Shown piece after piece: positions 1-64,000 of a stretch of DNA of 64,000 bases; position 1 is the first letter of the stretch, and every line of letters begins with the position of its first letter. Origin of the DNA: Eledone cirrhosa. Taxonomy: Eukaryota. Position numbers and translations under genes: made by a program. The notes beneath the pieces are model-generated. The model saw nothing but the letters and a program-made list of their open reading frames with translations, was not told the DNA's origin and made no database searches. Location: contig OZ024765.1 of NCBI GenBank assembly GCA_964016885.1, forward strand, positions 21,266,001 to 21,330,000, written 5' to 3'.

Positions 1-1443
1 ACAACATTGCTACAGTAACAAGATCAACAGCCTCACCTGGTCCCTAATAACACCTTACCTGGTCTATTACAGACAACCACCAAACAACATTGCTACAGTA
101 ACAAGATCAACAGCCTCACCTGGTCCCTAATAACCCCTTACCTTGTATATTTCAGACAACCACCAAACAACATTGCTACAGTAACAAGATCAACAGCCTC
201 ACCTGGTCCCTAACAACTCCTTACCTGGTCTATTTCAGGCAACCACCAAACAACATTGCTACAGTAACAAGATCAACAGCCTCACCTGGTCCCTAATAAC
301 CCCTTACCTTGTATATTTCAGGCAACCACCAAACAACATTGCTACAGTAACAAGATCAACAGCCTCACCTGGTCCCTAACAACTCCTTACCTGGTCTATT
401 TCAGGCAACCACCAAACACCATTGCTACAGTAACAAGATCAACAGCCTCACCTGGTCCCTAATAACCCCTTACCTGGTCTATTTCAGGCAACCACCAAAC
501 AACATTGCTACAGTAACAAGATCAACAGCCTCACCTGGTCCCTAATAACCCCTTACCTGGTCTATTTCAGGCAACCACCAAACACCATTGCTACAGTAAC
601 AAGATCAACAGCCTCACCTGGTCCCTAACAACTCCTTACCTGGTCTATTTCAGGCAACCACCAAACACCATTGCTACAGTAACAAGATCAACAGCCTCAC
701 CTGGTCCCTAACAACTCCTTACCTGGTCTATTTCAGGCAACCACCCCACAACATTGCTACAGTAACAAGATCAACAGCCTCACCTGGTCCCTAATAACCC
801 CTTACCTTGTATATTACAGGCAACCACCAAACACCATTGCTACAGTAACAAGATCAACAGCCTCACCTGGTCCCTAATAACCCCTTACCTTGTATATTAC
901 AGGCAACCACCAAACACCATTGCTACAGTAACAAGATCAACAGCCTCACCTGGTCCCTAATAACCCCTTACCTGGTCTATTACAGACAACCACCAAACAC
1001 CATTGCTACAGTAACAAGATCAACAGCCTCACTTGGTCCCTAATAACCCCTTACCTGGTCTATTTCAGGCAACCACCAAACACCATTGCTACAGTAACAA
1101 GATCAACAGCCTCACCTGGTCCCTAATAACCCCTTACCTTGTATATTACAGACAACCACCAAACACCATTGCTACAGTAACAAGATCAACAGCCTCACCT
1201 GGTCCCTAACAACCCCTTACCTTGTATATTACAGACAACCACCAAACACCATTGCTACAGTAACAAGATCAACAGCCTCACCTCGTCCCTAATAACCCCT
1301 TACCTTGTATATTTCAGGCAACCACCAAACACCATTGCTACAGTAACAAGATCAACAGCCTCACCTGGTCCCTAATAACCCCTTACCTTGTATATTACAG
1401 GCAACCACCAAACACCATTGCTACAGTAACAAGATCAACAGCC
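1..1443 (+). repeat. 83-bp tandem array (~17 copies, runs off the window start); unit = intron end plus first 43 nt of host exon
   Basis: ACAACATTG recurs at 1, 84, 167. Unit TCACCTGGTCCCTAATAACCCCTTACCTTGTATATTACAG|GCAACCACCAAACACCATTGCTACAGTAACAAGATCAACAGCC. Confidence 0.95.
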
Positions 1444-1534
1444 ACATTAGATGTTGTTCAAGATTCTACAAAAATTAACCGAGATTTACCGCTTGGAAAA
1501 TCAATACGACTGCAGGCTGAAGTTAATGGAACTG
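1401..1534 (+). CDS. ZP-domain membrane protein, internal exon A (linker/start of ZP-C)
   Basis: ttacag| acceptor and G|gtaaat donor. Reads QPPNTIATVTRSTATLDVVQDSTKINRDLPLGKSIRLQAEVNGT(G); phase-1 end matches exon B. Confidence 0.75.
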
Positions 1535-3772: not shown

Positions 3773-4118
3773 GGAGGCACATGGCTTAGTGGTTAGAGCA
3801 TTGGCCTTGCAATCGAAAGGTTGTGAGTTCAATTCTCAGACCGGGTGATGTGTTGTTTCCTTGAGCAAGACACTTTATTTCACATTGCTCCAGTTTACTC
3901 AGCTGTAGAAATGAGATGATAGGGACTGGGGTCCCTATCATTCCACTGCAAAGTGGTCGTGGAGGCGCCACGGCAAAAAAGCACCCAGCACTCACTGTAA
4001 ATGAGGTTGGTGTTAGGAAGGGCATCCAGCTGTAGAAATCAAGCCAGCATCAGTTCCCGTCCCACCCTTGCAAGCAGGGAAAAGTGGACGTAAAATGAAA
4101 TGATGATGAATGATGATG
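3773..4118 (+). mobile_element. tRNA-derived CORE-like SINE with RTE-type tail
   Basis: A-box TGGCTTAGTGG, B-box GAGTTCAATTCTC, CORE-like CCTTGAGCAAGACACTT...CTGTAGAAATG, tail GTCCCACCCTTGCAAGCAGGGAAAAGTGGACGTAAAATG(ATG)n. Five near-identical copies in the window. Confidence 0.9.
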
Positions 4119-8027: not shown

Positions 8028-8365
8028 GAAGCACATGGCTTAGTGGTTAGAGCATTGGCCTTGCAATCGAAAGGTTGTGAGTTCAATTCTCAGACCGGGT
8101 GATGTGTTGTTTCCTTGAGCAAGACACTTTATTTCACATTGCTCCAGTTTACTCAGCTGTAGAAATGAGATGATAGGGACTGGGGTCCATATCATTCCAC
8201 TACAAAGTGGTTGTGGAGGTGCCACGGCAAAAAAGCACCCAGCACTCACTGTAAATGAGGTTGGTGTTAGGAAGGGCATCCAGCTGTAGAAATCAAGCCA
8301 GAATCAGTTCCCGTCCCACCCTTGCAAGCAGGGAAAAAGCGGACTTAAAACGAAATGATGAAATG
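8027..8365 (+). mobile_element. tRNA-derived CORE-like SINE, copy 2
   Basis: Near-identical to 3773-4118. Confidence 0.9.
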
Positions 8366-10415: not shown

Positions 10416-10649
10416 ATATATGAATGTATATATAGTGTATTTTACAATACACTGTATGCTTAATTAAAAGCATTTCGAAGACCCTACGCTATTGTTTTAG
10501 AGTAGTGACAGTCTCACTTACTTTAAATTTTCAGCAAACTGTTTGCTGAAAATTGAAAGTAAGTGAGACTGTCACTACTCTAAATCAATAGTGTAGGGTC
10601 TTGCTTTTAATTAAGCATACAGTGTATTGCAAAATACACTATATATACA

Positions 10650-12058: not shown

Positions 12059-12185
12059 CATATATATATATACATATATATAGAGAAAATTGAGGTTGGT
12101 AATGGCACATGGAATATATAAGAGACAGAATACTTTTTTGTGAAAAAACATAATTTTATAAGGTAAGGAAATAATAAAGGGTATA

Positions 12186-12234
12186 AAAAATGACCGGTTT
12201 CGATGGGTCTGCAAAAGCCATCTTTTCAAATGTT
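12186..12234 (-). ncRNA. minimal hammerhead motif, U3-A8 core variant, in 3' pLTR
   Basis: Reverse complement TTGAAAA-GATGG-cttttgcagac-CCATC-GAAA-CCGG-TC; helix I is weak. Confidence 0.6.
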
Positions 12235-12682
12235 GATTAATATTAAGAAAAATTAATAATACGAAGAGTTAAAATTTGAGACTTGAAAATTCAAGTATAA
12301 AATTCATTGTGGGATTTCATAGCAGTTTTCATCTAGGTAGCAACAACAGGTTGACTGCTGTGTCCCTTTCTGGTAGTGAATGAGAAGTTATTTGGGGTGT
12401 GGGTTATTTTATAAAGGTCAGATTTAGCAATCGCCAGCTGCTGGTCAGTGAGGGGGTGGAAGCAATATACACACACATATCTTCCTGTGATGGGTAGGAG
12501 AGTGGAGCGTGATAGAAAAGGATTTAGTGCACTTACACCTATATATACACACATACCTTCATCCACACATACATACATATACATATACATATACATATAT
12601 ATATATACATATACACACATACATACACACACACATACATATACATACACACATACACACACACACACATATATATACACAT

Positions 12683-13473: not shown

Positions 13474-15744
13474 CTATTGGGGTGATAACCCGTTTAGTTT
13501 TGGTTTAAATTTGTTAAGGAATAGATTTTCTTTGTTTATTCTTTGTTGTTGTGTGAACGAATCTGAGCACTTGTAGAAGGGGAAGATTTTAAAGTTGGGT
13601 AGTGTCATTCCTGCGCAGTTCGCAATATGGCTGCTCAAGGGGATTTTTCTTGTGTTAGCGTCCCGGATTTGTTGGCGGTGGATGGTCATTCTTTTGCGTA
13701 ATGAGGTGCCCGTCTGTCCTATGTAGTTGTGTTTGCACCCACCGCAAGTTATTGCGTAAATCAAGTTCTCCGAGTTGCAGGTGAAATTGTTTTTTACTGT
13801 AAATGTTTGGCCATCTTTGAATGTAAATGTTTGTCCTTCAGTGAGGTAGAGGCACGTTCCACAGTTTGTTCTACCACATTTGGTAACTGTAGGGTTGAGG
13901 ATTGGTTTGGGTATATTTGGTCCAGTGAGAATGCGTTTAAGTGATTTGGGTTGTCTTTTACTTTTAAGGATCTTGTGTGTTTCAAGAATAGACTTCATTT
14001 TTACATCTTTAAGTAGGATGGGGAGGTTTTTGTGTAGGTGATCAAACATTTCGGTATTTCTGGGGTTGAAAGTGGATACATATGGCAGGGTGTTGAGTGT
14101 GGTTTTCTGTTTTGGATTGTTAAGTTGATGGGGATTTAGGTGTTTTGCCCTGTCTATTCCATTGTTGATTATTTCAAGTGGAAAGGCTCTTAAGATAAGG
14201 GTGTCTTTTAGTTCCTTTAGTCTTTGCTCCCGTTTAGGTGGATCTGATACTATGGTACGTTTGGCCAAATTGTAAGGAATGTTAAGTTTTGTATGTTTTG
14301 GGTGACTTGATGTGAAAAAGAGGTATTGCTTGGAATCTGTGGGTTTATAGAATATATCTGTATCTAATTTCCCGTCTATTACAGAGATGAGAATATCCAA
14401 GAAGGCTAATTCCTTGGGATTGGATTCCATTGTGAATTGTATGTTATTATCTATGTTGTTTATCATGTTTTTAAACATAGTAAGTGAGTTCATGTCTTCT
14501 TGCCATAGGATAAAGCAGTCGTCTAGATATCTTTTCCAGTTGGCTTTGAGGTGTGTGTGGAAAGAGTCTCCAAATAAGAGAAGGGACTGACTGTATATTT
14601 GTTGTTCATGGAATCCCATGACTAGGTTGGCATATGTGGGTGCTACTTTCGTGCCCATTGCCGTACCTGATACTTGTCTGTATGTTGAACCATTGAATGT
14701 GAAGTAGTTATTTTGTAGGATAAAGCGGAGTCCGTCAGTGATAAAATCTGTGTTGATGCGTGTCGGTATTTCTGATGGGTGTGTGTTAAGCCAGTATTGG
14801 ACTGCTGTTATTCCATAGTTGTGAGGTATGTTTGTGTAGAGGTTTATTACATCAAAGGAGACAAGAATTGTATTTGCACTTACTGTTTTAGGGAGGTGTT
14901 TCAGCATGTCAAGGTCATCTCGTATGTAGCTCTGTATATGTTGTAGAAAGGGTTTCAGTAGGATGTCCAGAAAGTTGCTAAGTCTGTGGGTTTCACATGT
15001 AGGGCCTACTATAATTGGCCTGAGTTTTAGGTCTTCTGGTGGTGTTAGTTCAATGTAATTGTTGGTTGAGGTGTCACATGCATCGTTTATGGGTTTACAT
15101 TTGTGGAGTTTCGGTAAGCCGTAAAAAGAGCTTGTATTGCATTTGAAGTGGCTTATATAGTTAAACTCTTTTGTGGTTAAGCTGTTGCGGTATTTATTCA
15201 GTAAGGTCAAAAGGTTCCCCATTGTTTTGGTGTGTTTGTAGTTTTCTGTTTTTTCATAGTATGTGTTGTTTTCTAAAATGTTAAGTGCGAGGGTCCTATA
15301 GTAGTCCGTATTCATAATGACAACAGTACTGCCTTTATCGGCTTCTTTGATAGTTATCTCAGGGTTGTTTCTAAGTGTGAATAATTCTTCCCATTCGTGT
15401 GTAGATAGGTTTGATTTCGTGTGTTTATTTGTAATTTTTTCATAGGGAAAGTTGGTGATGTGTTCGCAGTACGTGTCCAGTGCTTTATTTCTTCCCTTTT
15501 GTGGGCAGAAATTGCTTTTATTTCTAACCAGTGATTCGTCTTCAGTGTTGGTGTCGTTGTGGAAGAATTCCGTTAGTCGCAGCTTTCGGCAGTATTCCAT
15601 GATGTCATCCTTCATTTCGGGGAAGTTTGGTTTACGTGGTGTAGGTGTAAATTTCAGGCCCTTACTTAAAATGTTGATTTGTGTGTTGGTTAGAGGTGTC
15701 TTTGAGAGGTTGATTATTTTTGGTTTCTCCTGAGGGGGGGCCAT
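13474..15744 (-). CDS. Penelope-like RT + GIY-YIG endonuclease (756 aa)
   Basis: IINLS..LSKGLKFTPTP, ADKGSTVV, FYGLPKLHK, RPIIVG, GTAMGTKVAPTYANL, KRYLDDCF, Cys linker CGRTNCGTC, LIYAITCGGCKHNYIGQT. Confidence 0.95.
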   Translation of the reverse strand: MAPPQEKPKIINLSKTPLTNTQINILSKGLKFTPTPRKPNFPEMKDDIMEYCRKLRLTEFFHNDTNTEDESLVRNKSNFCPQKGRNKALDTYCEHITNFPYEKITNKHTKSNLSTHEWEELFTLRNNPEITIKEADKGSTVVIMNTDYYRTLALNILENNTYYEKTENYKHTKTMGNLLTLLNKYRNSLTTKEFNYISHFKCNTSSFYGLPKLHKCKPINDACDTSTNNYIELTPPEDLKLRPIIVGPTCETHRLSNFLDILLKPFLQHIQSYIRDDLDMLKHLPKTVSANTILVSFDVINLYTNIPHNYGITAVQYWLNTHPSEIPTRINTDFITDGLRFILQNNYFTFNGSTYRQVSGTAMGTKVAPTYANLVMGFHEQQIYSQSLLLFGDSFHTHLKANWKRYLDDCFILWQEDMNSLTMFKNMINNIDNNIQFTMESNPKELAFLDILISVIDGKLDTDIFYKPTDSKQYLFFTSSHPKHTKLNIPYNLAKRTIVSDPPKREQRLKELKDTLILRAFPLEIINNGIDRAKHLNPHQLNNPKQKTTLNTLPYVSTFNPRNTEMFDHLHKNLPILLKDVKMKSILETHKILKSKRQPKSLKRILTGPNIPKPILNPTVTKCGRTNCGTCLYLTEGQTFTFKDGQTFTVKNNFTCNSENLIYAITCGGCKHNYIGQTGTSLRKRMTIHRQQIRDANTRKIPLSSHIANCAGMTLPNFKIFPFYKCSDSFTQQQRINKENLFLNKFKPKLNGLSPQ

Positions 15745-16979
15745 CGAGTATCCTGGTATTTCAGGCTTTTCCCTAAAAAAGGAATGTAGTTTTGTGTGTG
15801 ATTATATTTTGTTGGTCTGTTGCGTGTGGGTCTGTAGCTTGTTGTTTCATGAGGGTGAATGTGATGGTGGGGGTGGTATGTGTTGTGGTTGTTGATGAGC
15901 AAGGGTTCTGTTGTTGGTTCATGTGGTCTGGGTGCGTTATTTCTGTGGTACAGAGTGTTGAGGCTGGGGGGTTGTCTTTTGTTGGATTGAGGGTGATGTC
16001 TGGTGTGGTTGTGGGTAAGTTCTGTTGTGATTTCAAGTGGCCTGGGTGGATTTCTTCTGAGGAATGTGGTGTGTGTGTTGTGAGTTGGATCTATGTTATT
16101 TCGTCGTTGGTTTATGTAGGGGGCATTTCTACGGAAACCTGTGTTGTGGTGGTTGGGTGTGTTTCTTTTGGTGTAGTTGGCCGTATTTGGTTTGTGTTGG
16201 TGGGGGATGTGCCTGTGGTTAGTGTGTGTTGGGTTTGGTGGTGTAAATGTGTCTGTTGTAGTTCTTGTTATGTTCAAATGCTTTATAAAGGGGTTACCTG
16301 TTTGGTGCGTCCTTTTAAAGTCTTCTTCATATTTGAGGAACCAGTTTTCGGATTTTTCCCACCGTTTAAGGGAAATAGTTTCTGCATTCTCGCAGTCCTG
16401 TTTCCACGATTTGATTAAATTTTGTAGGGTTGTTCCCTCGGCCTTTTTAGTGCATTCTTCCTCCATATTTTTATCAGTATCCTTATACTCTTGCTCGTTT
16501 GAGGTGGCCCTTAATTTTAGGAGTTCTATTTCCATGTTTATCCTGTTGAGTGACATTTGTTCACGGAGTTTTCTTTCTGGTTCAGGTTCGTTTGTAATAT
16601 GCTTTATTTGGAATTTACGTGGTAAAACTATCGGTGTTGAGTTAATCCATTTTTGGTAAATTCCAGCTTTGTTGAGGTTTTTTATCATATTCCAGAAAGT
16701 GAATTTTCTGGTTTTTAGATGTTTTTTCCAGAGGTGTCCCATTTGGTTTTTGATATGGAGCAATGTCGTTTGTTCTGTGTTGGTATTCATAAGTTTTTCG
16801 ATGGAGTTGCATACGTTTTGAACGTTTAAATAAATTTGGTTGTCAGTCGGTGTGGTGGTTTGGGGTATATCCTGTTTTTTTGTCAGAATGGTGAGTTTTC
16901 CATTTATCTCTTTTAGGATTTTCAGGATTTCCTCATTGATATTGGAGTTTGAAGTGGTGTTGTCTTGTTCCAGTGCCAT
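15714..16979 (-). CDS. PLE upstream ORF1 (421 aa; helical/coiled-coil N half, basic low-complexity C half)
   Basis: Open non-repetitive frame whose ATG is ~60 nt from the 5' pLTR; overlaps the RT ORF, which is in the -1 frame. Confidence 0.85.
   Translation of the reverse strand: MALEQDNTTSNSNINEEILKILKEINGKLTILTKKQDIPQTTTPTDNQIYLNVQNVCNSIEKLMNTNTEQTTLLHIKNQMGHLWKKHLKTRKFTFWNMIKNLNKAGIYQKWINSTPIVLPRKFQIKHITNEPEPERKLREQMSLNRINMEIELLKLRATSNEQEYKDTDKNMEEECTKKAEGTTLQNLIKSWKQDCENAETISLKRWEKSENWFLKYEEDFKRTHQTGNPFIKHLNITRTTTDTFTPPNPTHTNHRHIPHQHKPNTANYTKRNTPNHHNTGFRRNAPYINQRRNNIDPTHNTHTTFLRRNPPRPLEITTELTHNHTRHHPQSNKRQPPSLNTLYHRNNAPRPHEPTTEPLLINNHNTYHPHHHIHPHETTSYRPTRNRPTKYNHTQNYIPFLGKSLKYQDTRWPPLRRNQK
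15774..15780 (-). promoter_or_regulatory. candidate -1 ribosomal frameshift heptamer U_UUU_UUA
   Basis: ORF1 codons CCT TTT TTA GGG; the -1 frame is open from here into the RT ORF. Confidence 0.7.
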
Positions 16980-17147
16980 TTTCCGGATTTGCGTAGGTTA
17001 GTATATATGAAAAGTGTAATTTTCTACACAAAACGAAGGTTATAGAGAAAATTGAGGTTGGTAATGGCACATGGAATATATAAGAGACAGAATACTTTTT
17101 TGTGAAAAAACATAATTTTATAAGGTAAGGAAATAATAAAGGGTATA

Positions 17148-17196
17148 AAAAATGACCGGTTTCGATGGGTCTGCAAAAGCCATCTTTTCAAATGTT
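17148..17196 (-). ncRNA. minimal hammerhead motif (U3-A8) in 5' pLTR
   Basis: Identical to 12186-12234. Confidence 0.6.
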
Positions 17197-17646
17197 GATT
17201 AATATTAAGAAAAATTAATAATACGAAGAGTTAAAATTTGAGACTTGAAAATTCAAGTATAAAATTCATTGTGGGATTTCATAGCAGTTTTCATCTAGGT
17301 AGCAACAACAGGTTGACTGCTGTGTCCCTTTCTGGTAGTGAATGAGAAGTTATTTGGGGTGTGGGTTATTTTATAAAGGTCAGATTTAGCAATCGCCAGC
17401 TGCTGGTCAGTGAGGGGGTGGAAGCAATATACACACACATATCTTCCTGTGATGGGTAGGAGAGTGGAGCGTGATAGAAAAGGATTTAGTGCACTTACAC
17501 CTATATATACACACATACCTTCATCCACACATACATACATATACATATACATATACATATATATATATATACATATACACACAAACATACACACACACAT
17601 ACATATACATACACACATACACACACACACACATATGTATACACAT

Positions 17647-18428: not shown

Positions 18429-18555
18429 GAGAGAATTGGGAGTGTGTAACACTCCACTTATCAAATAGGCAGTATATGGTTAGCTCAATGTCAGAGGACA
18501 GAGCCGTAATACAATTAACAACAAAGAGTGCTTAGAACATAGGTATATCTTTAAT

Positions 18556-23034: not shown

Positions 23035-23373
23035 GGAGGGCACATGGCTTAGTGGTTAGAGCATTGGCCTTGCAATCGAAAGGTTGTGAGTTCAATTCTC
23101 AGACCGGGTGATGTGTTGTTTCCTTGAGCAAGACACTTTATTTCACATTGCTCCAGTTTACTCAGCTGTAGAAATGAGATGATAGGGACTGGGGTCCATA
23201 TCATTCCACTGCAAAGTGGTCATGGAGGTGCCACGGCAAAAAAGCACCAGCATTCACTGTAAATGAGGTTGGTGTTAGGAAGGGCATCCAGCTGTAGAAA
23301 TCAAATCAGTTCCCGTCCCACCCTTGCACGCAGGGAAAAAGCGGACGTAAAATGAAATGATGATGTTGATGAT
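23035..23373 (+). mobile_element. tRNA-derived CORE-like SINE, copy 3
   Basis: Near-identical to 3773-4118. Confidence 0.9.
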
Positions 23374-33448: not shown

Positions 33449-34095
33449 TCATCATCATCATCATCGGTTAACGTCTATCTTCCATGCTAGCATGGGTTTG
33501 TCCCACGGGTTTGTCCCACTTGAGGCAAGAATGGTCTGGAGACCGTGTCTCGTACAGAACTGTATCTGGCTGGTTTTCTACGGCTGGATGCCCTTCCTAA
33601 CACCAACCACGTTTACAGAGAGGACTGGGAACGTTTTACCATGTCACCTACATGACCACTTTACAGAGTGGACTGGGTGTTTTTTGTTGTGACACCTACA
33701 TGACCACTTTACAGAGTGGACTGGGTGTTGTTTGTTGTGACACCTACATGACCACTTTACAGAGTGGACTGGGTGATGTTTGTTGTGACACCTACATGAC
33801 CACTTTACAGTGTGGACTGGGTGTTGTTTGTTGTGACACCTACATGACCACTTTACAGAGTGGACTGGGTGTTTTTTGTTGTGACACCTACATGACCACT
33901 TTACAGTGTGGACTGGGTGTTGTTTGTTGTGACACCTACATGACCACTTTACAGAGTGGACTGGGTGTTTTTTGTTGTGACACCTACATGGCCACTTTAC
34001 AGTGTGGACTGGGTGTTTTTTGTTGTGACACTTACATGACCACTTTACAGAGTGGACTGGGTGCCTTTTTACCATGTCTCCTAAGTGACCACTTT
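33449..34095 (-). mobile_element. RTE 3'-UTR/SINE-like fragment with internal 48-bp tandem expansion (33645-34075)
   Basis: GGCTGGATGCCCTTCCTAACACCAACC motif; unit CACCTACATGACCACTTTACAGAGTGGACTGGGTGTTTTTTGTTGTGA, ~9 copies. Confidence 0.8.
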
Positions 34096-34160: not shown

Positions 34161-34245
34161 GTGCTGTTGGTGTCCATGTGACAAGCTGTAAAGTCTCCCC
34201 AAGTCCAGGAAAACAACCAGTTTTGATCCTTCTCGATGAAAATGG
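34161..34245 (+). CDS. ZP-domain protein exon B
   Basis: tttttaacag| acceptor. Reads (G)AVGVHVTSCKVSPSPGKQPVLILLDEN(G), the ZP-C LIDENGC-type motif; phase 1 to phase 2. Confidence 0.85.
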
Positions 34246-34374: not shown

Positions 34375-34710
34375 GGAGAGACATAGCTTAGTGGTTAGAG
34401 CATTGGGCTTGCAATCGAATGGTTGTGAGTTCAATTCTCAGACCAGGTATTGTGTTGTTTCCTTGAGCAAGACACTTTATTTAACATTTGCTCCAGTTTA
34501 CTCAGCTGTAGAAATGAGATGATAGGGACTGGGGTCCCTATCATTCCACTGTAAAGTGGTCGTGGTGGTGCCACGGCAAAAAAAGCATGCAGGGCTCACT
34601 GCAAATGAGGTTGGTGTTAGGAAGGGCATCCAGCTGTAGAAATCAAGCCAGTATCAGTTCTCGTCGCACCCTTGCAAGCAGGGAAAAGTGGACGTAAAAT
34701 GATGATGATG
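34375..34710 (+). mobile_element. tRNA-derived CORE-like SINE, copy 4
   Basis: Homologous to 3773-4118. Confidence 0.9.
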
Positions 34711-34978: not shown

Positions 34979-35313
34979 TCATCATCATCATTTTACGCCT
35001 GCTTTTCCCTGCTTGCAAGGATGGTACGGGAACTGATTCTGGCTTGATTTCTACAGCTGGATGCCCTTCCTAACACCAACCTCATTTACAGTGAGTGCTG
35101 GGTGCTTTTTTGCCATGGCACCTCCATGACCACTTTGCAGTGGAATGATAGGGACCCCAGTCCCTATCATCTCATTTCTACAGCTGAGTAAACTGGAGCA
35201 ATGTGAAATAAAGTGTCTTGCTCAAGAAAACAACACATCACCTGGTCTGAGAATTAAACTCACAACCTTTCGATTGCAAGGCCAATGCTCTAACCACTAA
35301 GTCATGTGCCTCC
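34979..35313 (-). mobile_element. tRNA-derived CORE-like SINE, copy 5 (inverted)
   Basis: Reverse complement of the family consensus. Confidence 0.9.
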
Positions 35314-45981: not shown

Positions 45982-46150
45982 TTGCTCGACAGATCTTCAA
46001 ATTCTGGAGGGATTCCATGGAGTCGACCAAGATGGTTCCATTGCCCAGACCAACCTGTTTCAGGTGTTTAAGTTTACAACAAGCAACACACTTTATTTCA
46101 CCTGTAAACTAGATTTTTGTTATGTTCATAAAGACCCATTTTGTGCTGGG
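45982..46150 (+). CDS. ZP-domain protein exon C
   Basis: atttccag| acceptor and |gtaagt donor. Reads CSTDLQILEGFHGVDQDGSIAQTNLFQVFKFTTSNTLYFTCKLDFCYVHKDPFCAG, the ZP-C FxxFxF..YFxC..C..C signature. Confidence 0.9.
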
Positions 46151-46177: not shown

Positions 46178-48190
46178 TCTTCTTCACCCACTTATTCCTG
46201 AGAGGGTCGTAGGAGGGGCAGAGTCCTCAAACACTCCTTCCAGAGTGTCTTGTCAGAAGCAACCGTCTCCAACGGATCCGGTTGGATTCCCAAGCAAGAC
46301 CAGCCAAGCTCATGGATGTTATCCAACCATATTGCTCAGGGTCTACCCTGGATCTCCTGCCAGTTGGTTTTGCCCATAAAAATTGTCCAGAGATTCTTTC
46401 CTGGGACATTCTAACCACATGTCCATAGTATCAGAGCTGTGATCTCTCAATTCGGAGATTCTTTCCTGAGTCATTCTAACCACATGTCTGTAGTATCAGA
46501 GCTGTGATCTCTCAATTCGGAGATTCTTTCCTCAGACATTCTAACCTCATGTCTGTAGTATCAGAGCTGTGATCTCTTAATCCAGAGATTCTTTCCTGAG
46601 ACATTCTAACCACATGTCCATAGTATCAGAGCTGTGATCTCTCAATTCGGAGATTCTTTCCTGAGTCATTCTAACCACATGTCTGTAGTATCAGAGCTGT
46701 GATCTCTCAATTCGGAGATTCTTTCCTGAGTCATTCTAACCACATGTCTGTAGTATCAGAGCTGTGATCTCTTAATCCAGAGATTCTTTCCTGAGACATT
46801 CTAACCACATGTCCATAGTATCAGAGCTGTGATCTCTCAATTCGGAGATTCTTTCCTGAGTCATTCTAACCACATGTCTGTAGTATCAGAGCTGTGATCT
46901 CTCAATTCGGAGATTCTTTCCTGAGTCATTCTAACCACATGTCTGTAGTATCAGAGCTGTGATCTCTTAATCCAGAGATTCTTTCCTGAGACATTCTAAC
47001 CACATGTCCATAGTATCAGAGCTGTGATCTCTCAATTCGGAGATTCTTTCCTGAGTCATTCTAACCACATGTCTGTAGTATCAGAGCTGTGATCTCTCAA
47101 TTCGGAGATTCTTTCCTGAGTCATTCTAACCACATGTCTGTAGTATCAGAGCTGTGATCTCTTAATCCAGAGATTCTTTCCTGAGACATTCTAACCACAT
47201 GTCCATAGTATCAGAGCTGTGATCTCTCAATTCGGAGATTCTTTCCTGAGTCATTCTAACCACATGTCTGTAGTATCAGAGCTGTGATCTCTTAATCCAG
47301 AGATTCTTTCCTGAGACATTCTAACCACATGTCCATAGTATCAGAGCTGTGATCTCTCAATTCGGAGATTCTTTCCTGAGTCATTCTAACCACATGTCTG
47401 TAGTATCAGAGCTGTGATCTCTCAATTCGGAGATTCTTTCCTGAGTCATTCTAACCACATGTCTGTAGTATCAGAGCTGTGATCTCTTAATCCAGAGATT
47501 CTTTCCTGAGACATTCTAACCACATGTCCATAGTATCAGAGCTGTGATCTCTCAATTCGGAGATTCTTTCCTGAGTCATTCTAACCACATGTCTGTAGTA
47601 TCAGAGCTGTGATCTCTCAATTCGGAGATTCTTTCCTGAGTCATTCTAACCACATGTCTGTAGTATCAGAGCTGTGATCTCTTAATCCAGAGATTCTTTC
47701 CTGGGACATTCTAACCACATGTCCATAGTATCAGAGCTGTGATCTCTCAATTTGGAGATTCTTTCCTGAGTCATTCTAACCACATGTCTGTAGTATCAGA
47801 GCTGTGATCTCTCAATTCAGAGATTCTTTCCTGAGACATTCTAACCACATGTCTGTAGTATCAGAGCTGTGATCTCTCAATTCGGAGATTCTTTCCTGAG
47901 ACATTCTAACCACATGTCTGTAGTATCAGAGCTGTGATCTCTCAATTCGGAGAAGTAGCAGCTCTACCTGGAGTGACTCTCTGATCTCCGAGTTACACAC
48001 TATATCAAGTATCATTACTCTAAAAACCCTTCAGAGGAATCCCATTTCTTTGGCTTGTATTCTTTCAATCATTACCCAAGATTCATAGCCATAGTAAGGG
48101 TTGGTGCGAATACCAAATTGAAGATAGTGAGTTTGGCTTTTACACCTACGTCCCTCCTGATGGCTGTTACAGCAACCTCCCTTCTTATGG
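46178..48190 (-). mobile_element. decayed RTE-like LINE 3' fragment containing a 65-bp satellite
   Basis: Minus-strand remnants LLLRIERSQL*YYGHVVRMSQER..AKPTGRR flank and form the array. Confidence 0.7.
46390..47952. repeat. 65-bp tandem array (~24 copies)
   Basis: GATCTCT recurs at 46441, 46506, 46571; variants mostly cycle in 3-mers. Confidence 0.95.
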
Positions 48191-53997: not shown

Positions 53998-54121
53998 AAT
54001 CATTGCCAGTCAAAGAAACATGGGAACAGGTTCAAACGGGATAATAGTGACAACAATACAGAGACAGCAGAGAATTTTATTTCCACTTTTGTACGTGTTT
54101 CCATGGGACCTAAAGCAAGTG
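53998..54121 (+). CDS. ZP-domain protein exon D (last Cys, furin site, EHP-like strand)
   Basis: tttatacag| acceptor and G|gtgagt donor. Reads NHCQSKKHGNRFKRDNSDNNTETAENFISTFVRVSMGPKAS; phase 0 to phase 1. Confidence 0.88.
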
Positions 54122-54697
54122 GTGAGTATATATATATACACATACATATACACACAAGCTACATGAGAGTCAATGCCCTTATTTTATCTCTGGCAGAGCC
54201 AGCTGTAACTCTATATGCAAATGTGGATGATCAGCCCATGTACATGGGCTTCTAAACTATATTTTGGCTTATATTAAGTTCCAACAGTAAGCGGTCTGCA
54301 GTACCTGTTTGATAACGACTAAAGTCAGAAATGATGACATCATCATTACTGGTTACCTGTACTTAGCTTCTGTTGGAACTCACTAGATGGTGCTATGCTG
54401 TCAATTTTCAAATTCATAGTGGAAGGCTTTCCAAATGTTTATTTATAACCATACCGTATATCGCCAGATATACAACTTCACGTATTTCATATAAAAACAC
54501 AACCACTTTACAGTGTCAACCGGGTGCTTTTTGTCGTGTCACCTACATGACCACATTACAGTGTGGACTGGGTGCTTTTTGTCGTGTCACCTACATAACT
54601 ACATTACAGTGTGTACTTGGAGCCTCTTTACTGTGAACGGAAATGGGTGGATGGAGTGTATATTGGGTTAAGAGGTGCCTACTGACTGTAGGTTTAA

Positions 54698-56271
54698 CCC
54701 TTTAGTGTTTACATTACTCTATATATACTTTGTATTTTCACAGTAAAGTCTTTACCTCACATAATATCTCACATAACATTTACATTACTCTATATATACT
54801 ATTGTATTTTCACAGTAAAGGCTTTACCTCACATAATATCTCACATAACATTTACATTACTCTATATATACTATTGTATTTTCACAGTAAAGGCTTTACC
54901 TCACATAATATCTCACATAACATTTACATTACTCTATATATACTATTGTATTTTCACAGTAAAGGCTTTACCTCACATAATATCTCACATAACATTTACA
55001 TTACTCTATATATACTATTGTATTTTCACAGTAAAGTCTTTACCTCACATAATATCTCACATAACATTTACATTACTCTATATATACTATTGTATTTTCA
55101 CAGTAAAGGCTTTACCTCACATAATATCTCACATAACATTTACATTACTCTATATATACTATTGTATTTTCACAGTAAAGGCTTTACCTCACATAATATC
55201 TCACATAACATTTACATTACTCTATATATACTATTGTATTTTCACAGTAAAGGCTTTACCTCACATAATATCTCACATAACATTTACATTACTCTATATA
55301 TACTATTGTATTTTCACAGTAAAGGCTTTACCTCACATAATATCTCACATAACATTTACATTACTCTATATATACTATTGTATTTTCACAGTAAAGGCTT
55401 TACCTCACATAATATCTCACATAACATTTACATTACTCTATATATACTATTGTATTTTCACAGTAAAGTCTTTACCTCACATAATATCTCACATAACATT
55501 TACATTACTCTATATATACTATTGTATTTTCACAGTAAAGGCTTTACCTCACATAATATCTCACATAACATTTACATTACTCTATATATACTATTGTATT
55601 TTCACAGTAAAGGCTTTACCTCACATAATATCTCACATAACATTTACATTACTCTATATATACTATTGTATTTTCACAGTAAAGGCTTTACCTCACATAA
55701 TATCTCACATAACATTTACATTACTCTATATATACTATTGTATTTTCACAGTAAAGGCTTTACCTCACATAATATCTCACATAACATTTACATTACTCTA
55801 TATATACTATTGTATTTTCACAGTAAAGTCTTTACCTCACATAATATCTCACATAACATTTACATTACTCTATATATACTATTGTATTTTCACAGTAAAG
55901 GCTTTACCTCACATAATATCTCACATAACATTTACATTACTCTATATATACTATTGTATTTTCACAGTAAAGGCTTTACCTCACATAATATCTCACATAA
56001 CATTTACTTTACTCTATATATACTATTGTATTTTCACAGTAAAGGCTTTACCTCACATAATATCTCACATAACATCTACATTACTCTATATATACTATTG
56101 TATGTTGTGGTAAAGGCTTTATCTCACATAGTTATCACACATAATATCAAATCTATGAGATGTTGATATTATTTATTTTGAGAACAAAACCTTAACATGA
56201 GAATGAGTGGCCAGTTACAGCTGGTTTGAACAGAATTCTGGCCAGATACGGCCGGTTTAAATACTAAAGGG
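54698..56271. mobile_element. non-autonomous piggyBac-type (TTAA) element filled by a 72-bp array
   Basis: TTAA|CCCTTTAGTGTTTA ... TAAATACTAAAGGG|TTAA. Confidence 0.8.
54708..56145. repeat. 72-bp tandem array (~20 near-identical copies)
   Basis: 24-codon periodicity in ORF 54730-56166. Confidence 0.97.
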
Positions 56272-56389
56272 TTAAGTTTGTATGCAAGGGAAGGTGGGTC
56301 TTCTATAGAACTGTATAACACCAAAGATCTCGATGCAGTGACATTGTCTTAGAGAAGTGATGATAATATATATTTTGTCTGTATTCCAG

Positions 56390-56787
56390 CGGAAACTTCG
56401 TCAGATTCTCAACTAGAGAGCTTGTGTGTGACTTCCCAGATTTTCGTGTTAACCACGGCAACCCTGAGTGCTCTCCTGCTTCTGGCTTTGATCTTCTCCT
56501 TCTCGTTGTGTGCCCGGGTGACCAGGAGAACCTCAAAGCCGGGGCCTCAACTTGTGTCATCCCCTCGTCATCCAAAACCAATCCAGTCAACCTCCGCGGA
56601 CACCGGCCGTCGAGTCTTGTCGTCGACGACATCAGCAGCAGCAGCGGCGTCTTCTCGTCACCTAGGGGGTCGTAGGTCAGAACAGCTCTCTCGTGACCCC
56701 CATCAGAGGTCATCGTCATCGGTGTTGACCCCTCGTGGTAGCGGTGGTGGGGTCAGAACTCCTGGAGTCTCATCCGAGGCCCCTTAA
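56390..56787 (+). CDS. ZP-domain protein terminal exon (TM helix and cytoplasmic tail)
   Basis: gtattccag| acceptor, phase 1. Reads (A)ETSSDSQLESLCVTSQIFVLTTATLSALLLLALIFSFSLCARVTRR...EAP*. AATAAA cluster at ~57177-57195. Confidence 0.85.
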
Positions 56788-57288: not shown

Positions 57289-57810
57289 GGAGTGACCCTA
57301 CCTAGAGTGACTCTACCTGGAGTGACTCTACCTGGAGTGACCCTACTTGGAGTGACCCTACCTGGAGTGACTATCTGGAGTGGCCCTAACTGAAGTGACC
57401 CTACCTGGAGTGACTCTACCTGGATTGACCCTGCCTGGAGTGACTCTATTTGGAGTGACTCTACCTGGAGTGACCCTACCTGCAGTGACTCTACCTGGAG
57501 TGACTCTACCTGGAGTGACTCTACCTGGAGTGACCCTACCTGGAGTGACTATCTGGAGTGACCCTACCTGGAGTGACTCTACCTGCAGTGACTCTACCTG
57601 GAGTGGCCCTAACTGGAGTGACCCTACCTGGAGTGAATCTACCTGGAGTGGCTCTAACTGGAGTGACTCCCTGATCTCTGAGTTACGCACTCTATTGAGT
57701 AATACCACTCCAAAGACCTCTCCAAGAAGCCACAGTTTCGTTCATTGTATTTGCGATCGTACACTTTCGGACATTAACCAGGATTCATGACCAACGCTAA
57801 CGGCTGATAC
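57289..57810 (-). mobile_element. RTE-like LINE remnant with a 15-bp expansion (GAGTGACTCTACCTG, 57289-57670)
   Basis: RVRNSEIRESLQLEPL remnant; homologous to 47955-48110. Confidence 0.7.
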
Positions 57811-57851: not shown

Positions 57852-60800
57852 GACAGTCTTCCATTAGAAATATGGTAATGAAAGGGTTAATGACATAGGT
57901 AGTGTCTTACATTAGAAATATGGTAATGGAGGGGTTAATGACATAGACAGTGTCTTTCATTAGAAATATGGTAATGAAAGGGTTAATGACATAGACAGTG
58001 TCTTTCATTAGAAATATGGTAATGAAAGGGTTAATGACATAGACAGTGTCTTACATTAGAAATATGGTAATGGAAGGGTTAATGACATAGACAGTGTCTT
58101 TCATTAGAAATATGGTAATGAAAGGGTTAATGACATAGACAGTGTCTTTCATTAGAAATATGTTAACAAAAGGGTTAATGACATAGACAGTGTCTTTCAT
58201 TAGAAATATGGTAATGAAAGGGTTAATGACATAGACAGTGTCTTACATTAGAAATATGGTAATGGAGGGGTTAATGACATAGACAGTGTCTTTCATTAGA
58301 AATATGGTAATGAAAGGGTTAATGACATAGACAGTGTCTTTCATTAGAAATATGGTAACAAAAGGGTTAATGACATAGACAGTGTCTTTCATTAGAAATA
58401 TTGTAATGAAAGGGTTAATGACATAGACAGTGTCTTACATTAGAAATATGGTAATGGAGGGGTTAATGACATAGACAGTGTCTTTCATTAGAAATATGGT
58501 AACAAAAGGGTTAATGACATAGACAGTGTCTTTCATTAGAAATATGGTAATGAAAGGGTTAATGACATAGACAGTGTCTTACATTAGAAATATGGTAATG
58601 AAAGGGTTAATGACATAGACAGTGTCTTTCATTAGAAATAAGGTAATGAAAGGGTTAATGACATAGACAGTGTCTTACATTAGAAATATGGTAATGGAGG
58701 GGTTAATGACATAGACAGTGTCTTTCATTAGAAATATGGTGATGAAAGGGTTAATGACATAGACAGTGTCTTTCATTAGAAATATGGTAATGAAAGGGTT
58801 AATGACATAGACAGTGTCTTTCATTAGAAATATGGTAATGAAAGGGTTAAAGACATAGACAGTGTCTTTCATTAGAAATATGGTAATGAAAGGGTTAATG
58901 ACATAGACAGTGTCTTTCATTAGAAATATGGTAATGAAAGGGTTAAAGACATAGACAGTGTCTTTCATTAGAAATATGGTAATGAAAGGGTTAATGACAT
59001 AGAAACTATGTTTCATTAGAAATATGGTAATGAAAGGGTTAATGACATAGACAGTGTCTTTCATTAGAAATATGGTAATGAAAGGGTTAAAGACATAGAC
59101 AGTGTCTTTCATTAGAAATATGGTAATGAAAGGGTTAATGACATAGACAGTGTCTTCCATTAGAAATATGGTAATGAAAGGGTTAATGACATAGACAGTG
59201 TCTTTCATTAGAAATATGGTAATGAAAGGGTTAATGACATAGACAGTGTCTTCCATTAGAAATATGGTAATGAAAGGGTTAATGACATAGACTGTCTTTC
59301 ATTAGAAATATGGTAATGAAAGGGTTAATGACATAGACAGTGTCTTCCATTAGAAATATGGTAATGAAAGGGTTAATGACATAGACAGTGTCTTTCATTA
59401 GAAATATGGAAATGAAAGGGTTAATGACATAGACAGTGTCTTCCATTAGAAATATGGTAATGAAAGGGTTAATGACATAGACAGTGTCTTTCATTAGAAA
59501 TATGGTAATGAAAGGGTTAATGACATAGACAGTGTCTTCCATTAGAAATATGGTAATGAAAGGGTTAATGACATAGACAGTGTCTTTCATTAGAAATATG
59601 GAAATGAAAGGGTTAAAGACATAGACAGTGTCTTTCATTAGAAATATGGTAATGAAAGGGTTAATGACATAGACAGTGTCTTCCATTAGAAATATGGTAA
59701 TGAAAGGGTTAATGACATAGACAGTGTCTTTCATTAGAAATATGGAAATGAAAGGGTTAATGACATAGACAGTGTCTTTCATTAGAAATATGGAAATGAA
59801 AGGGTTAAAGACATAGACAGTGTCTTTCATTAGAAATATGGTAATGAAAGGGTTAATGACATAGACAGTGTCTTTCATTAGAAATATGGTAATGAAAGGG
59901 TTAATGACATAGACAGTGTCTTTCATTAGAAATATCGTAATGAAAGGGTTAATGACATAGACAGTGTCTTCCATTAGAAATATGGTAATGAAAGGGTTAA
60001 TGACATAGACAGTGTCTTTCATTAGAAATATGGTAATGAAAGGGTTAATGACATAGACAGTGTCTTTCATTAGAAATATGGTAATGAAAGGGTTAATGAC
60101 ATAGACAGTCTCTTTCATTAGAAATATGGTAATGAAAGGGTTAAAGACATAGACAGTGTCTTTCATTAGAAATATGGTAATGAAACGGTTAATGACATAG
60201 ACAATGTCTTTCATTAGAAATATGGTAATGAAAGGGTTAATGACATAGACAGTGTCTTTCATTAGAAATATGGTAATGAAAGGGTTAATGACATAGACAG
60301 TGTCTTTCATTAGAAATATGGTAATGAAAGGGTTAATGACATAGACAGTGTCTTACATTAGAAATATGGTAATGAAAGGGTTAAAGACATAGACAGTGTC
60401 TTACATTAGAAATATGGTAATGAAAGGGTTAAAGACATAGACAGTGTCTTTCATTAGAAATATGGTAATGAAAGGGTTAATGACATAGACAGTGTCTTTC
60501 ATTAGAAATATGTTAATGGAAGGGTTAATGACATAGACAGTGTCTTTCATTAGAAATATGGTAATGGAAGGGATAATGATATAGACAGTGTCTTTCATTA
60601 GAAATATGGTAATGGAAGGGTTAATGACATAGACAGTGTCTTTCATTAGAAATATGGTAATGAAAGGGTTAATGACATAGACAGTGTCTTTCATTAGAAA
60701 TATGGTAATGGAAGGGTTAATGACATAGACAGTGTCTTTCATTAGAAATATGGTAATGGAAGGGTTAATGACATAGACAGTGTCTTACATTAGAAATATG

Positions 60801-63800
60801 GTAATGAAAGGGTTAATGACATAGACAGTGTCTTACATTAGAAATATGGTAATGAAACGGTTAATGACATAGACAGTGTCTTACACTAGAAATATGGTAA
60901 TGAAAGGGTTAAAGACATAGACAGTGTCTTACATTAGAAATATGGTAATGAAAGGGTTAATGACATAGACAGTGTCTTTCATTAGAAATATGGTAATGAA
61001 AGGGTTAATGACATAGACAGTGTCTTTCATTAGAAATATGGTAATGAAAGGGTTAATGACATAGACAGTGTCTTTCATTAGAAATATGGTAATGGAAGGG
61101 TTAATGACATAGACAGTTTCTTTCATTAGAAATATGTTAATGGAAGGGTTAATGATATAGACAGTGTCTTTCATTAGAAATATGGTAATGGAAGGGTTAA
61201 TGACATAGACAGTGTCTTTCATTAGAAATATGGTAATGAAAGGGTTAATGACATAGACAGTGTCTTTCATTAGAAATATGGTAATGGAAGGGTTAATGAC
61301 ATAGACAGTGTCTTTCATTAGAAATATGGTAATGGAAGGGTTAATGACATAGACAGTGTCTTTCATTAGAAATATAGTAATGGAAGGGTTAATGACATAG
61401 ACAGTGTCTTTCATTAGAAATATGGTAATGAAAGGGTTAATGACATAGACAGTGTCTTACATTAGAAATATGGTAATGAAAGGGTTAATGACATAGACAG
61501 TGTCTTACATTAGAAATATGGTAATGAAAGGGTTAAAGACATAGACAGTGTCTTTCATTAGAAATATGGTAATGAAAGGGTTAATGACATAGACAGTGTC
61601 TTTCATTAGAAATATGTTAATGGAAGGGTTAATGACATAGACAGTGTCTTTCATTAGAAATATGGTAATGGAAGGGATAATGATATAGACAGTGTCTTTC
61701 ATTAGAAATATGGTAATGGAAGGGTTAATGACATAGACAGTGTCTTTCATTAGAAATATGGTAATGAAAGGGTTAATGACATAGACAGTGTCTTTCATTA
61801 GAAATATGGTAATGGAAGGGTTAATGACATAGACAGTGTCTTTCATTAGAAATATGGTAATGGAAGGGTTAATGACATAGACAGTGTCTTACATTAGAAA
61901 TATGGTAATGAAAGGGTTAAAGACATAGACAGTGTCTTACATTAGAAATATGGTAATGAAACGGTTAATGACATAGACAGTGTCTTTCATTAGAAATATG
62001 GTAATGAAAGGGTTAATGACATAGACAGTGTCTTACACTAGAAATATGGTAATGAAAGGGTTAAAGACATAGACAGTGTCTTACATTAGAAATATGGTAA
62101 TGAAAGGGTTAATGACATAGACAGTGTCTTTCAGTAGAAATATGGTAATGAAAGGGTTAATGACATAGACAGTGTCTTTCATTAGAAATATGGTAATGGA
62201 AGGGTTAATGACATAGACAGTGTCTTTCATTAGAAATATGGTAATGAAAGGGTTAATGACATAGACAGTGTCTTTCATTAGAAATATGGTAATGGAAGGG
62301 TTAATGACATAGACAGTGTCTTTCATTAGTAATATGGTAATGGAAGGGTTAATGACATAGACAGTGTCTTTCATTAGAAATATGGTAATGGAAGGGTTAA
62401 TGACATAGACAATGTCTTTCATTAGAAATAAGGTAATGAAAGGGTTAATGACATAGACAGTGTCTTTCATTAGAAATAAGGTAATGGAAGGGTTAATGAC
62501 ATAGACAGTGTCTTTCATTAGAAATATGATAATGAAAGGGTTAATGACATAGACAGTGCCTTTCATTAGAAATATGGTAATGAAAGGGTTAATGACAGAC
62601 AGTGTCTTTCATTAGAAATATGGTAATGAAAGGGTTAATGACAGACAGCGTCTTTCATTAGAAATATGGTAATGAAAGGGTTAATGACATAGACAGTGTC
62701 TTTCATTAGAAATATGATAATGGAAGGGTTAAAGACATAGACAGTGTCTTTCATTAGAAATATAGTAATGAAAGGGTTAATGACATAGACAATGTCTTTC
62801 ATTAGAAATATGGTAATGAAAGGGTTAATGACATAGACAGTGTCTTTCATTAGAAATATGGTAATGGAAGGGATAATGATATAGACAGTGTCTTTCATTA
62901 GAAATATGGTAATGAAAGGGTTAATGACATAGACAGTGTCTTTCATTAGAAATATGGTAATGAAAGGGTTAATGACATAGACAGTGTCTTTCATTAGAAA
63001 TATGGTAATGAAAGGGTTAATGACATAGACAGTGTCTTCCATTAGAAATATGGTAATGAAAGGGTTAATGACATAGACAGTGTCTTTCATTAGAAATATG
63101 GTAATGAAAGGGTTAATGACATAGACAGTGTCTTTCATTAGAAATATGGTAATGAAAGGGTTAATGACATAGACAGTCTCTTTCATTAGAAATATGGTAA
63201 TGAAAGGGTTAAAGACATAGACAGTGTCTTTCATTAGAAATATGGTAATGAAACGGTTAATGACATAGACAATGTCTTTCATTAGAAATATGGTAATGAA
63301 AGGGTTAATGACATAGACAGTGTCTTTCATTAGAAATATGGTAATGAAAGGGTTAATGACATAGACAGTGTCTTTCATTAGAAATATGGTAATGAAAGGG
63401 TTAATGACATAGACAGTGTCTTACATTAGAAATATGGTAATGAAAGGGTTAAAGACATAGACAGTGTCTTACATTAGAAATATGGTAATGAAAGGGTTAA
63501 AGACATAGACAGTGTCTTTCATTAGAAATATGGTAATGAAAGGGTTAATGACATAGACAGTGTCTTTCATTAGAAATATGTTAATGGAAGGGTTAATGAC
63601 ATAGACAGTGTCTTTCATTAGAAATATGGTAATGGAAGGGATAATGATATAGACAGTGTCTTTCATTAGAAATATGGTAATGGAAGGGTTAATGACATAG
63701 ACAGTGTCTTTCATTAGAAATATGGTAATGAAAGGGTTAATGACATAGACAGTGTCTTTCATTAGAAATATGGTAATGGAAGGGTTAATGACATAGACAG

Positions 63801-64000
63801 TGTCTTTCATTAGAAATATGGTAATGGAAGGGTTAATGACATAGACAGTGTCTTACATTAGAAATATGGTAATGAAAGGGTTAATGACATAGACAGTGTC
63901 TTACATTAGAAATATGGTAATGAAACGGTTAATGACATAGACAGTGTCTTACACTAGAAATATGGTAATGAAAGGGTTAAAGACATAGACAGTGTCTTAC
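57852..64000. repeat. 48-bp satellite (>125 copies, runs off the window end) with higher-order duplications
   Basis: Unit ACAGTGTCTTTCATTAGAAATATGGTAATGAAAGGGTTAATGACATAG; identical translated blocks at 60401, 61505 and 63469. Confidence 0.98.

Follow-up and report, generated by a model that had tools for sequence, protein, structure and literature searches.

The window, by which we mean the whole 64,000-nucleotide stretch of Eledone cirrhosa DNA analyzed here, carries on its plus strand five exons with AG/GT ends and compatible phases, which were chosen by reading the sequence and then checked by homology, and which join into an unbroken open frame of 302 codons. The first of them (positions 1401 to 1534, 134 nt, with a CAG acceptor and a GT donor in agreement with the consensus at 7 of 9 positions) encodes the ZP linker and the start of ZP-C. 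It is followed by a second ZP-C exon of 85 nt (34161 to 34245), a ZP-C core exon of 169 nt (45982 to 46150), an exon of 124 nt (53998 to 54121) whose translation contains a furin-type RFKR site and aligns with the related protein P0003, and a terminal coding exon (56390 to 56787), placed by its translation and its alignment with P0003, that encodes a transmembrane (TM) helix and a tail and ends in TAA. The introns between them measure 32,626 nt (1535 to 34160, with many microsatellites and transposon remnants), 11,736 nt, 7,847 nt, and 2,268 nt, and AATAAA motifs lie 252 to 397 nt downstream of the terminal TAA. The ZP-N exons of the gene, and any signal peptide, are located outside the window.

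Over 131 amino acids, the joined frame shares 83% identity with a predicted ZP protein of Octopus vulgaris (P0001), and over 194 amino acids it shares 51% with P0003, a protein of 405 amino acids with 160 residues upstream of the linker and a furin-type site and TM helix at its end. In a tblastn search, P0001 covered positions 1396 to 1536 with 69% identity (E 2e−17), and its identity to the second and third exons was 93% (over 30 amino acids) and 91%, respectively. The core exon on its own matches Pfam model PF00100 with an E value of 8e−4 and 20 bits, under the cutoff of 24.6, and both P0001 and P0003 score above the Pfam cutoffs for VERL_C and ZP-C (37.8 bits for ZP-C in P0001). In these domain matches the two relatives resemble the molluscan single-module ZP proteins (VERL_C, ZP-C, CUT_C), whose furin-type site and TM helix are also found in the gene described here. 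By the known layout of ZP modules, we take exon 53998–54121 to hold the furin-type site and likely the external hydrophobic patch. With a ZP-C domain and the order of furin-type site, then hydrophobic patch and TM helix, the predicted product is a ZP-module protein. An earlier note on this DNA had placed ZP-C and TM exons downstream of 1401, and these correspond to the second, third, and terminal exons listed above. A protein search with exon 1401–1534 alone gave 14 candidates, none at an E value of 10 or better, a neighbor search with P0003 recovered only P0003 itself among 3,093 candidates, and no transcript-derived protein of E. cirrhosa was among the protein matches to the gene.

An exon starting at 54197 was considered as the last one and rejected, as it is in phase and ends without a TM helix, and 56390 fits P0003 better. 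At 54197 to 54254, a strong acceptor-like site keeps the phase of exon 53998–54121 and is followed by ∼19 codons and a stop, and no AATAAA was found within 500 nt. This segment is possibly an alternative last exon, which would give a form without the TM helix.

An 83-bp array across the acceptor at 1401

Positions 1 to 1443 (plus strand) form a minisatellite with a period of 83 bp, of which 17.4 copies are in view (96% matches, 0% indels, and a score of 2543 in TRF, complemented by a unit table). Each unit consists of the last 40 nt of the intron and the first 43 nt of exon 1401–1534, the other 91 nt of which (1444 to 1534) are single copy within the window. The 17 acceptor-like junctions lie at positions 73 + 83k, the last being 1401, with a spacing of exactly 83 in all 16 intervals. 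CAG ends the intron part in 17/17 units, and all 17 contain CCCTAA(T/C) with a branch-like A at −26, where 19 to 37 nt is the usual distance between branch point and acceptor according to the passage cited (PMC10078293). For acceptor 1401, this motif is the CCCTAAT at 1370 to 1376 (plus strand), which may be used as its branch point and whose TAA (1373 to 1375) is an in-frame stop for the preceding unit. Since the window opens inside the exon part of an additional unit, 17 copies are a minimum; the array starts beyond the left edge of the window, as does the upstream exon. Both the unit described in the earlier note (a branch motif, CAG, and 43 exon nucleotides within 83 bp) and its count of ∼17 acceptor copies were recovered, the latter as a lower bound.

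The units are 90 to 100% identical to the authentic one, and 14 of the 17 are distinct, with 11 variable columns and an average of 3.9 differences per pair, all of them substitutions. It is most improbable that the repeat was made by misjoined reads: even though the region is dense in repeats and three units are identical, the distinctness of the others, the variants common to nonadjacent units, and a window free of N all speak against it. Furthermore, four gametes are shown by 18 of the 21 pairs of shared variable columns, and identical units occur nonadjacently, which is the pattern of unequal exchange and not of read error. Similarity to the authentic unit rises towards 1401 (rho −0.50, p 0.047). 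The array thus combines three structural features of the arrays known as “mirages”, namely, a tandem unit that spans an exon-intron boundary with the authentic boundary in the terminal unit, a copied splice signal (CAG and the branch-like motif in 17/17 units), and a minisatellite-sized unit (83 bp) with turnover by unequal exchange, and by all three it is a mirage. A coding repeat in the other frames or on the minus strand of 1 to 1534 was ruled out, with stops interrupting all of them, as was an origin of the unit as a piece of a transposon, with no other match in the window below an E value of 0.89. An Rfam scan of positions 1 to 1600 gave no match in the array and four subthreshold microRNA matches on a TA microsatellite, and no recursive splice site (AG directly followed by GT) was found within the unit.

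To place the genuine boundary, we relied on the relatives of the protein. In P0009 and P0003, the ZP-N sequence runs directly into a single linker copy at the position of 1401, and the more distant P0010 resembles a genomic read-through of exon 1401–1534, implying the same exon limits. Because the upstream exon is joined only once in P0009 and P0003, and at this position, these alignments identify 1401 as the authentic acceptor, in line with what had been proposed. The 302-codon frame likewise opens from 1401 alone, as expected if only this copy continues into coding sequence.

Decoy acceptors and their stops

The other 16 junctions (73, 156, and so on to 1318; region 73 to 1400, plus strand) are pseudo-acceptors, each followed by 18 codons and a TAA that is part of the branch motif of the following unit. 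The TAA reported earlier at this distance is present in 16/16 decoys, whereas the codons quoted ahead of it differ in units 986 and 1235. If spliced to the donor at 1534, the decoys would give exons of 1,462 down to 217 nt (217, 300, and 383 nt for the three nearest ones), and their stops lie 159 to 1,404 nt before the next junction in all 16 cases. On paper, every decoy therefore leads to a premature stop, as had been claimed. The description of the decoys as near-identical acceptors also holds, with units 820 and 903 showing no difference from the authentic one between −40 and +43. The pyrimidine fraction from −20 to −4 is 0.71 to 0.76 in the units versus 0.65 to 0.71 in the four downstream modeled acceptors, and in 10 of the 17 units the intron end is slightly more pyrimidine rich than the authentic one.

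The idea of the stop as a designed coupling found no support in a shuffle test. When the intron part of the unit was shuffled, none of 5,000 arrays gave a full-length frame from any decoy, because a unit of 83 nt shifts the reading frame and an off-frame stop is present in the exon part, and in 1,779 of 5,000 a stop fell by chance in the first intron part. The coupling of decoys to stops therefore needs no selection, and a stop placement beyond chance, as would characterize regulated unproductive splicing (AS-NMD), was not found. There is likewise no sign that the splice signals have been kept or purged by selection: the 11 variable columns would miss AG by chance with a P of 0.75 and both CAG and CTAA with a P of 0.35. 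Selection that keeps or removes AG was rejected, and the variable columns make up 7 of the 40 intronic versus 4 of the 43 exonic positions (p 0.34). In the distant relative P0010, compared by translation only, no copy of the exon start was found in the 47 codons (141 nt) upstream, which were compatible at 31 of 42 positions, against 42 of 42 in the window control. This weakly suggests a lineage-specific array.

It has been proposed that the length of the array tunes the gene, in that more units would lead to more NMD or to more of a secreted ZP-N-only protein, and copy number would set the dose of full-length product. Intact decoy acceptors, some of them with the richer pyrimidine tracts noted above, that all end in a stop are what this reading calls for, and it has precedent in human repeats that can shift splicing (PMC10078293, PMC12776774) and in CBS and 6-16, which use pseudo-sites (PMC1557585), as far as the passages cited describe them. 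We nevertheless consider it quite unlikely. The stops are unavoidable here, as the shuffled arrays show, the comparison with P0010 (translation only) gives no sign of conservation, and units past the third would need exons of more than 380 nt, so that any effect should saturate. Moreover, the leak described in the precedents is confined to the two nearest pseudo-sites (PMC1557585, passages cited).

Choice of the authentic acceptor and its probable capture by a minisatellite

Units 820 and 903 are the same as the authentic unit and folding singles out nothing, which places the selector outside the unit. Specifically, an RNA structure that hides the decoys was rejected, with mean unpaired probabilities of 0.63 to 0.66 in four decoys and 0.65 at 1401, and of 0.46 in the edge unit. 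All 51 GT sites in positions 1 to 1400 match 4 or 5 of 9 donor consensus positions, compared with the 7 of 9 at 1534, and the exon is flanked by an intron of 32.6 kb downstream and one of at least 1.4 kb upstream. In vertebrates, exon definition applies in genes with long introns, the upper exon size preference lies near 300 nt, and NMD follows a 50- to 55-nt rule.

We consider it probable that the array is a neutral, boundary-spanning minisatellite that is resolved by exon definition, with a small leak at the nearest units. In this scenario, a single 83-bp tandem duplication would by chance have straddled the acceptor of the exon that encodes the linker and the start of ZP-C and then expanded, and the units would have mixed through unequal crossing-over or gene conversion, as in the window's seven other complex minisatellites. 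The spliceosome would not scan from the upstream donor past 16 acceptors; in such a long-intron gene, the exon would instead be defined across its own length, the acceptor committed being the one that lies 134 nt from the sole strong donor (1534), with 91 unique exon bases, and the decoys would remain intronic. Leak would be expected on the nearest units (1318, giving an exon of 217 nt, and 1235, giving one of 300 nt) or through the weak cryptic donors of the units, giving a product with a premature stop that is probably cleared by NMD, and extra distant units would change little. As the modeled genuine donor at 34245 matches only 4 of 9 positions, whereas cryptic GT sites within the units reach 5 of 9, the score leaves room for short pseudo-exons, which may form from these cryptic donors. 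Mechanistic precedent is mostly donor side and mammalian. The F7 discussion, in the passages cited (PMC1557585), raises exon definition and the poorer splicing of unusually large exons and describes scanning as widely accepted for 3′ sites, with early duplication experiments in disagreement. For NMD in molluscs, no evidence was found by title and abstract start in the open-licence literature searched.

Tandem repeats make up 52% of the window. A preset filter for complex arrays (period of at least 15, at least 5 copies, and trimer diversity of at least 0.45) was passed by 8 minisatellites covering 12,593 nt, and when their seeds were placed at random in nonrepeat sequence, 7.7% of trials struck one of the 9 splice sites. 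From this figure we infer, on the basis of one window, that a genome of this kind should show acceptor capture many times over.

Of the other seven complex minisatellites, five (33645 to 34063, 46390 to 47953, 54708 to 56144, 57289 to 57669, and 57856 to 63998) lie within 98 to 1,069 nt of a coding exon edge, a post hoc observation at one locus with a permutation p of 0.09 under uniform placement and of 0.015 with arrays collapsed and seeds in nonrepeat DNA. In the last intron, an element at 54694 to 56275 has inverted ends flanked by TTAA and is presumably piggyBac-like. Inside it, 246 nt before the TM exon, is a 72-bp array of 20 copies (98% matches) with 19 acceptor-like TTTTCACAG motifs and two open frames with hydrophobic peptides, possibly a second set of decoy acceptors that is not exon derived. 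A 48-bp array at 57856 to 63998 has at least 128 copies and runs past the end of the window, and its unit contains a AAAGGGTTAA motif resembling the end of the same element. Elsewhere in the window, copies of a tRNA-like SINE-type repeat are found at 3775 to 4100, 8030 to 8350, 23040 to 23350, 34380 to 34700, and 35030 to 35310, and a related repeat body gave rise to the 48-bp arrays at 33645 and 54497, as judged by blast. A direct repeat of ∼450 nt (12083 to 12540 and 17043 to 17500) flanks a long minus-strand open region (13500 to 16980) that by eye resembles a retroelement. Reading the sequence also showed two long inverted repeats, both near-perfect, at 18452 to 18700/18800 to 19020 and at 10441 to 10640.

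Evolution of the linker exon and known boundary-spanning arrays

Exon 1401–1534 shows an excess of amino acid changes, which is not predicted under strict neutrality. With P0009 as the outgroup, its orthology being assumed, the whole exon has 9 changes specific to the window lineage versus 1 in O. vulgaris (p 0.021, post hoc), namely, 5 versus 1 within the 14 codons that are duplicated and 4 versus 0 across the rest of the exon. The next exon has 0 versus 0 (21 comparable columns), and for the ZP-C core exon, with P0003 as the outgroup, the changes number 1 and 2. One explanation, compatible with harmless splicing, is that the unconstrained copies of codons 1 to 14 gather changes and that unequal exchange into the last copy speeds up the evolution of the linker. 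This would agree with the contrast between the duplicated part and the rest (p 0.017), with the recombination among units and their growing similarity to the authentic unit towards it, and with codon 5, which encodes Thr in the real exon but Asn in 6 of the 17 units and in both relatives. However, four of the nine changes fall outside the duplicated 43 nt, the duplicated part versus the rest of the same exon gives a p of only 0.11, and P0003 as the outgroup yields just 2 versus 0 (p 0.5); the counts are small, and linkers vary anyway. We therefore hold this explanation to be rather improbable. The excess fits an exchange between array and exon, and it is explained equally well by selection on the linker that is either relaxed or positive.

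The excess, together with a one-codon deletion in the same exon and a long protein tail of low complexity in the terminal exon, could also be taken to indicate a decaying gene in which missplicing has no consequence. Decay is very improbable, given that the five AG/GT exons form an unbroken frame and that the ZP-C exons are 91 to 93% identical to O. vulgaris. At codon 15 (1444 to 1446), all decoys have TCA or similar (Ser), and O. vulgaris also has Ser, in place of the ACA (Thr) of the real exon; at position −4, T is found in 10 of the 17 units, as the O. vulgaris read-through implies, and A is found in the authentic unit. At these two sites, the units may keep older states, or the differences may reflect junction microhomology.

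That the array is a new kind of structure is not supported, as both mirages and donor-side repeats have been described before. In amphioxus, mirages are known from Adh3, the globin genes BflGb6 and BflGb9, troponin C (TnC), and PGBD5, and those of Adh3, globin, and TnC are reported not to disturb the mRNA (PMC3087553, PMC3902484, in the passages cited). According to the same passages, they share with the array described here tandem units over an exon-intron boundary, kept splice signals, and concerted evolution; BflGb6 also shares the acceptor-side unit, made of the 3′ intron end and a 5′ exon part, and 83 bp falls within the reported unit length of 10 to 160 bp. The array differs from them in its copy number (at least 17 versus 6 and 3 in BflGb6), in the higher identity of its units to the authentic one, in the presence of AG in all units, in its cephalopod host, and in the 32.6-kb intron that flanks the exon. 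For the amphioxus mirages, these passages report variation in length and clean splicing; the present array is seen in the DNA of one haplotype.

Donor-side arrays have been described in human genes, i.e., F7 IVS7 (37 bp, 5 to 9 copies), CBS IVS13 (15 to 20 units), 6-16 (25 pseudo-sites), LMNB2 (100 bp, 10 to 15 copies), and PDGF intron 4 (81 bp, 16 to 18 copies), of which F7, LMNB2, and PDGF use the authentic site only and CBS and 6-16 use two further pseudo-sites (PMC1557585, passages cited). As far as these passages go, the human arrays are alike in their identical splice sites, in a similar copy number and unit size, and in the copy next to the exon body being authentic, but they repeat the donor, whereas the array described here repeats the branch point, the tract, and the acceptor. 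The splice-junction repeats termed spl-TRs (PMC10078293, PMC12776774), such as the CUL4A VNTR, which modulates splicing (PMC12776774), are alike as repeats whose length could alter splicing; for them, the passages cited give a measured link between length and splicing, whereas for the array described here such a link is a proposal. Boundary repeats in human paralogues have further been described, in the passage cited, to generate new introns (PMC2812944). The passages of PMC6905558 and PMC4732748 cited here describe no boundary-spanning array, and none was found for cephalopods in the open-licence literature searched. The array is thus a known architecture, a mirage, in a new high-copy, acceptor-side case.

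As such, it is a clean mirage in a cephalopod and offers a natural test of 3′ splice site choice, in which the candidate sites have identical local sequence and are set apart solely by how far they lie from the donor, on the acceptor side, which has been studied less than donors. It is also a warning to annotators that arrays of this kind can misplace exon starts. The array would matter more if it were demonstrated that such arrays supply coding changes or tune mRNA. That this mirage is not inert, with its copies acting as a reservoir that rewrites 14 linker codons and its nearest decoys leaking to NMD or to a ZP-N-only product, seems doubtful to us. If this were true, arrays of this type should be common among octopods, in view of how dense minisatellites are in this genome, and they would represent a general route from intronic repeats to protein and splicing change.
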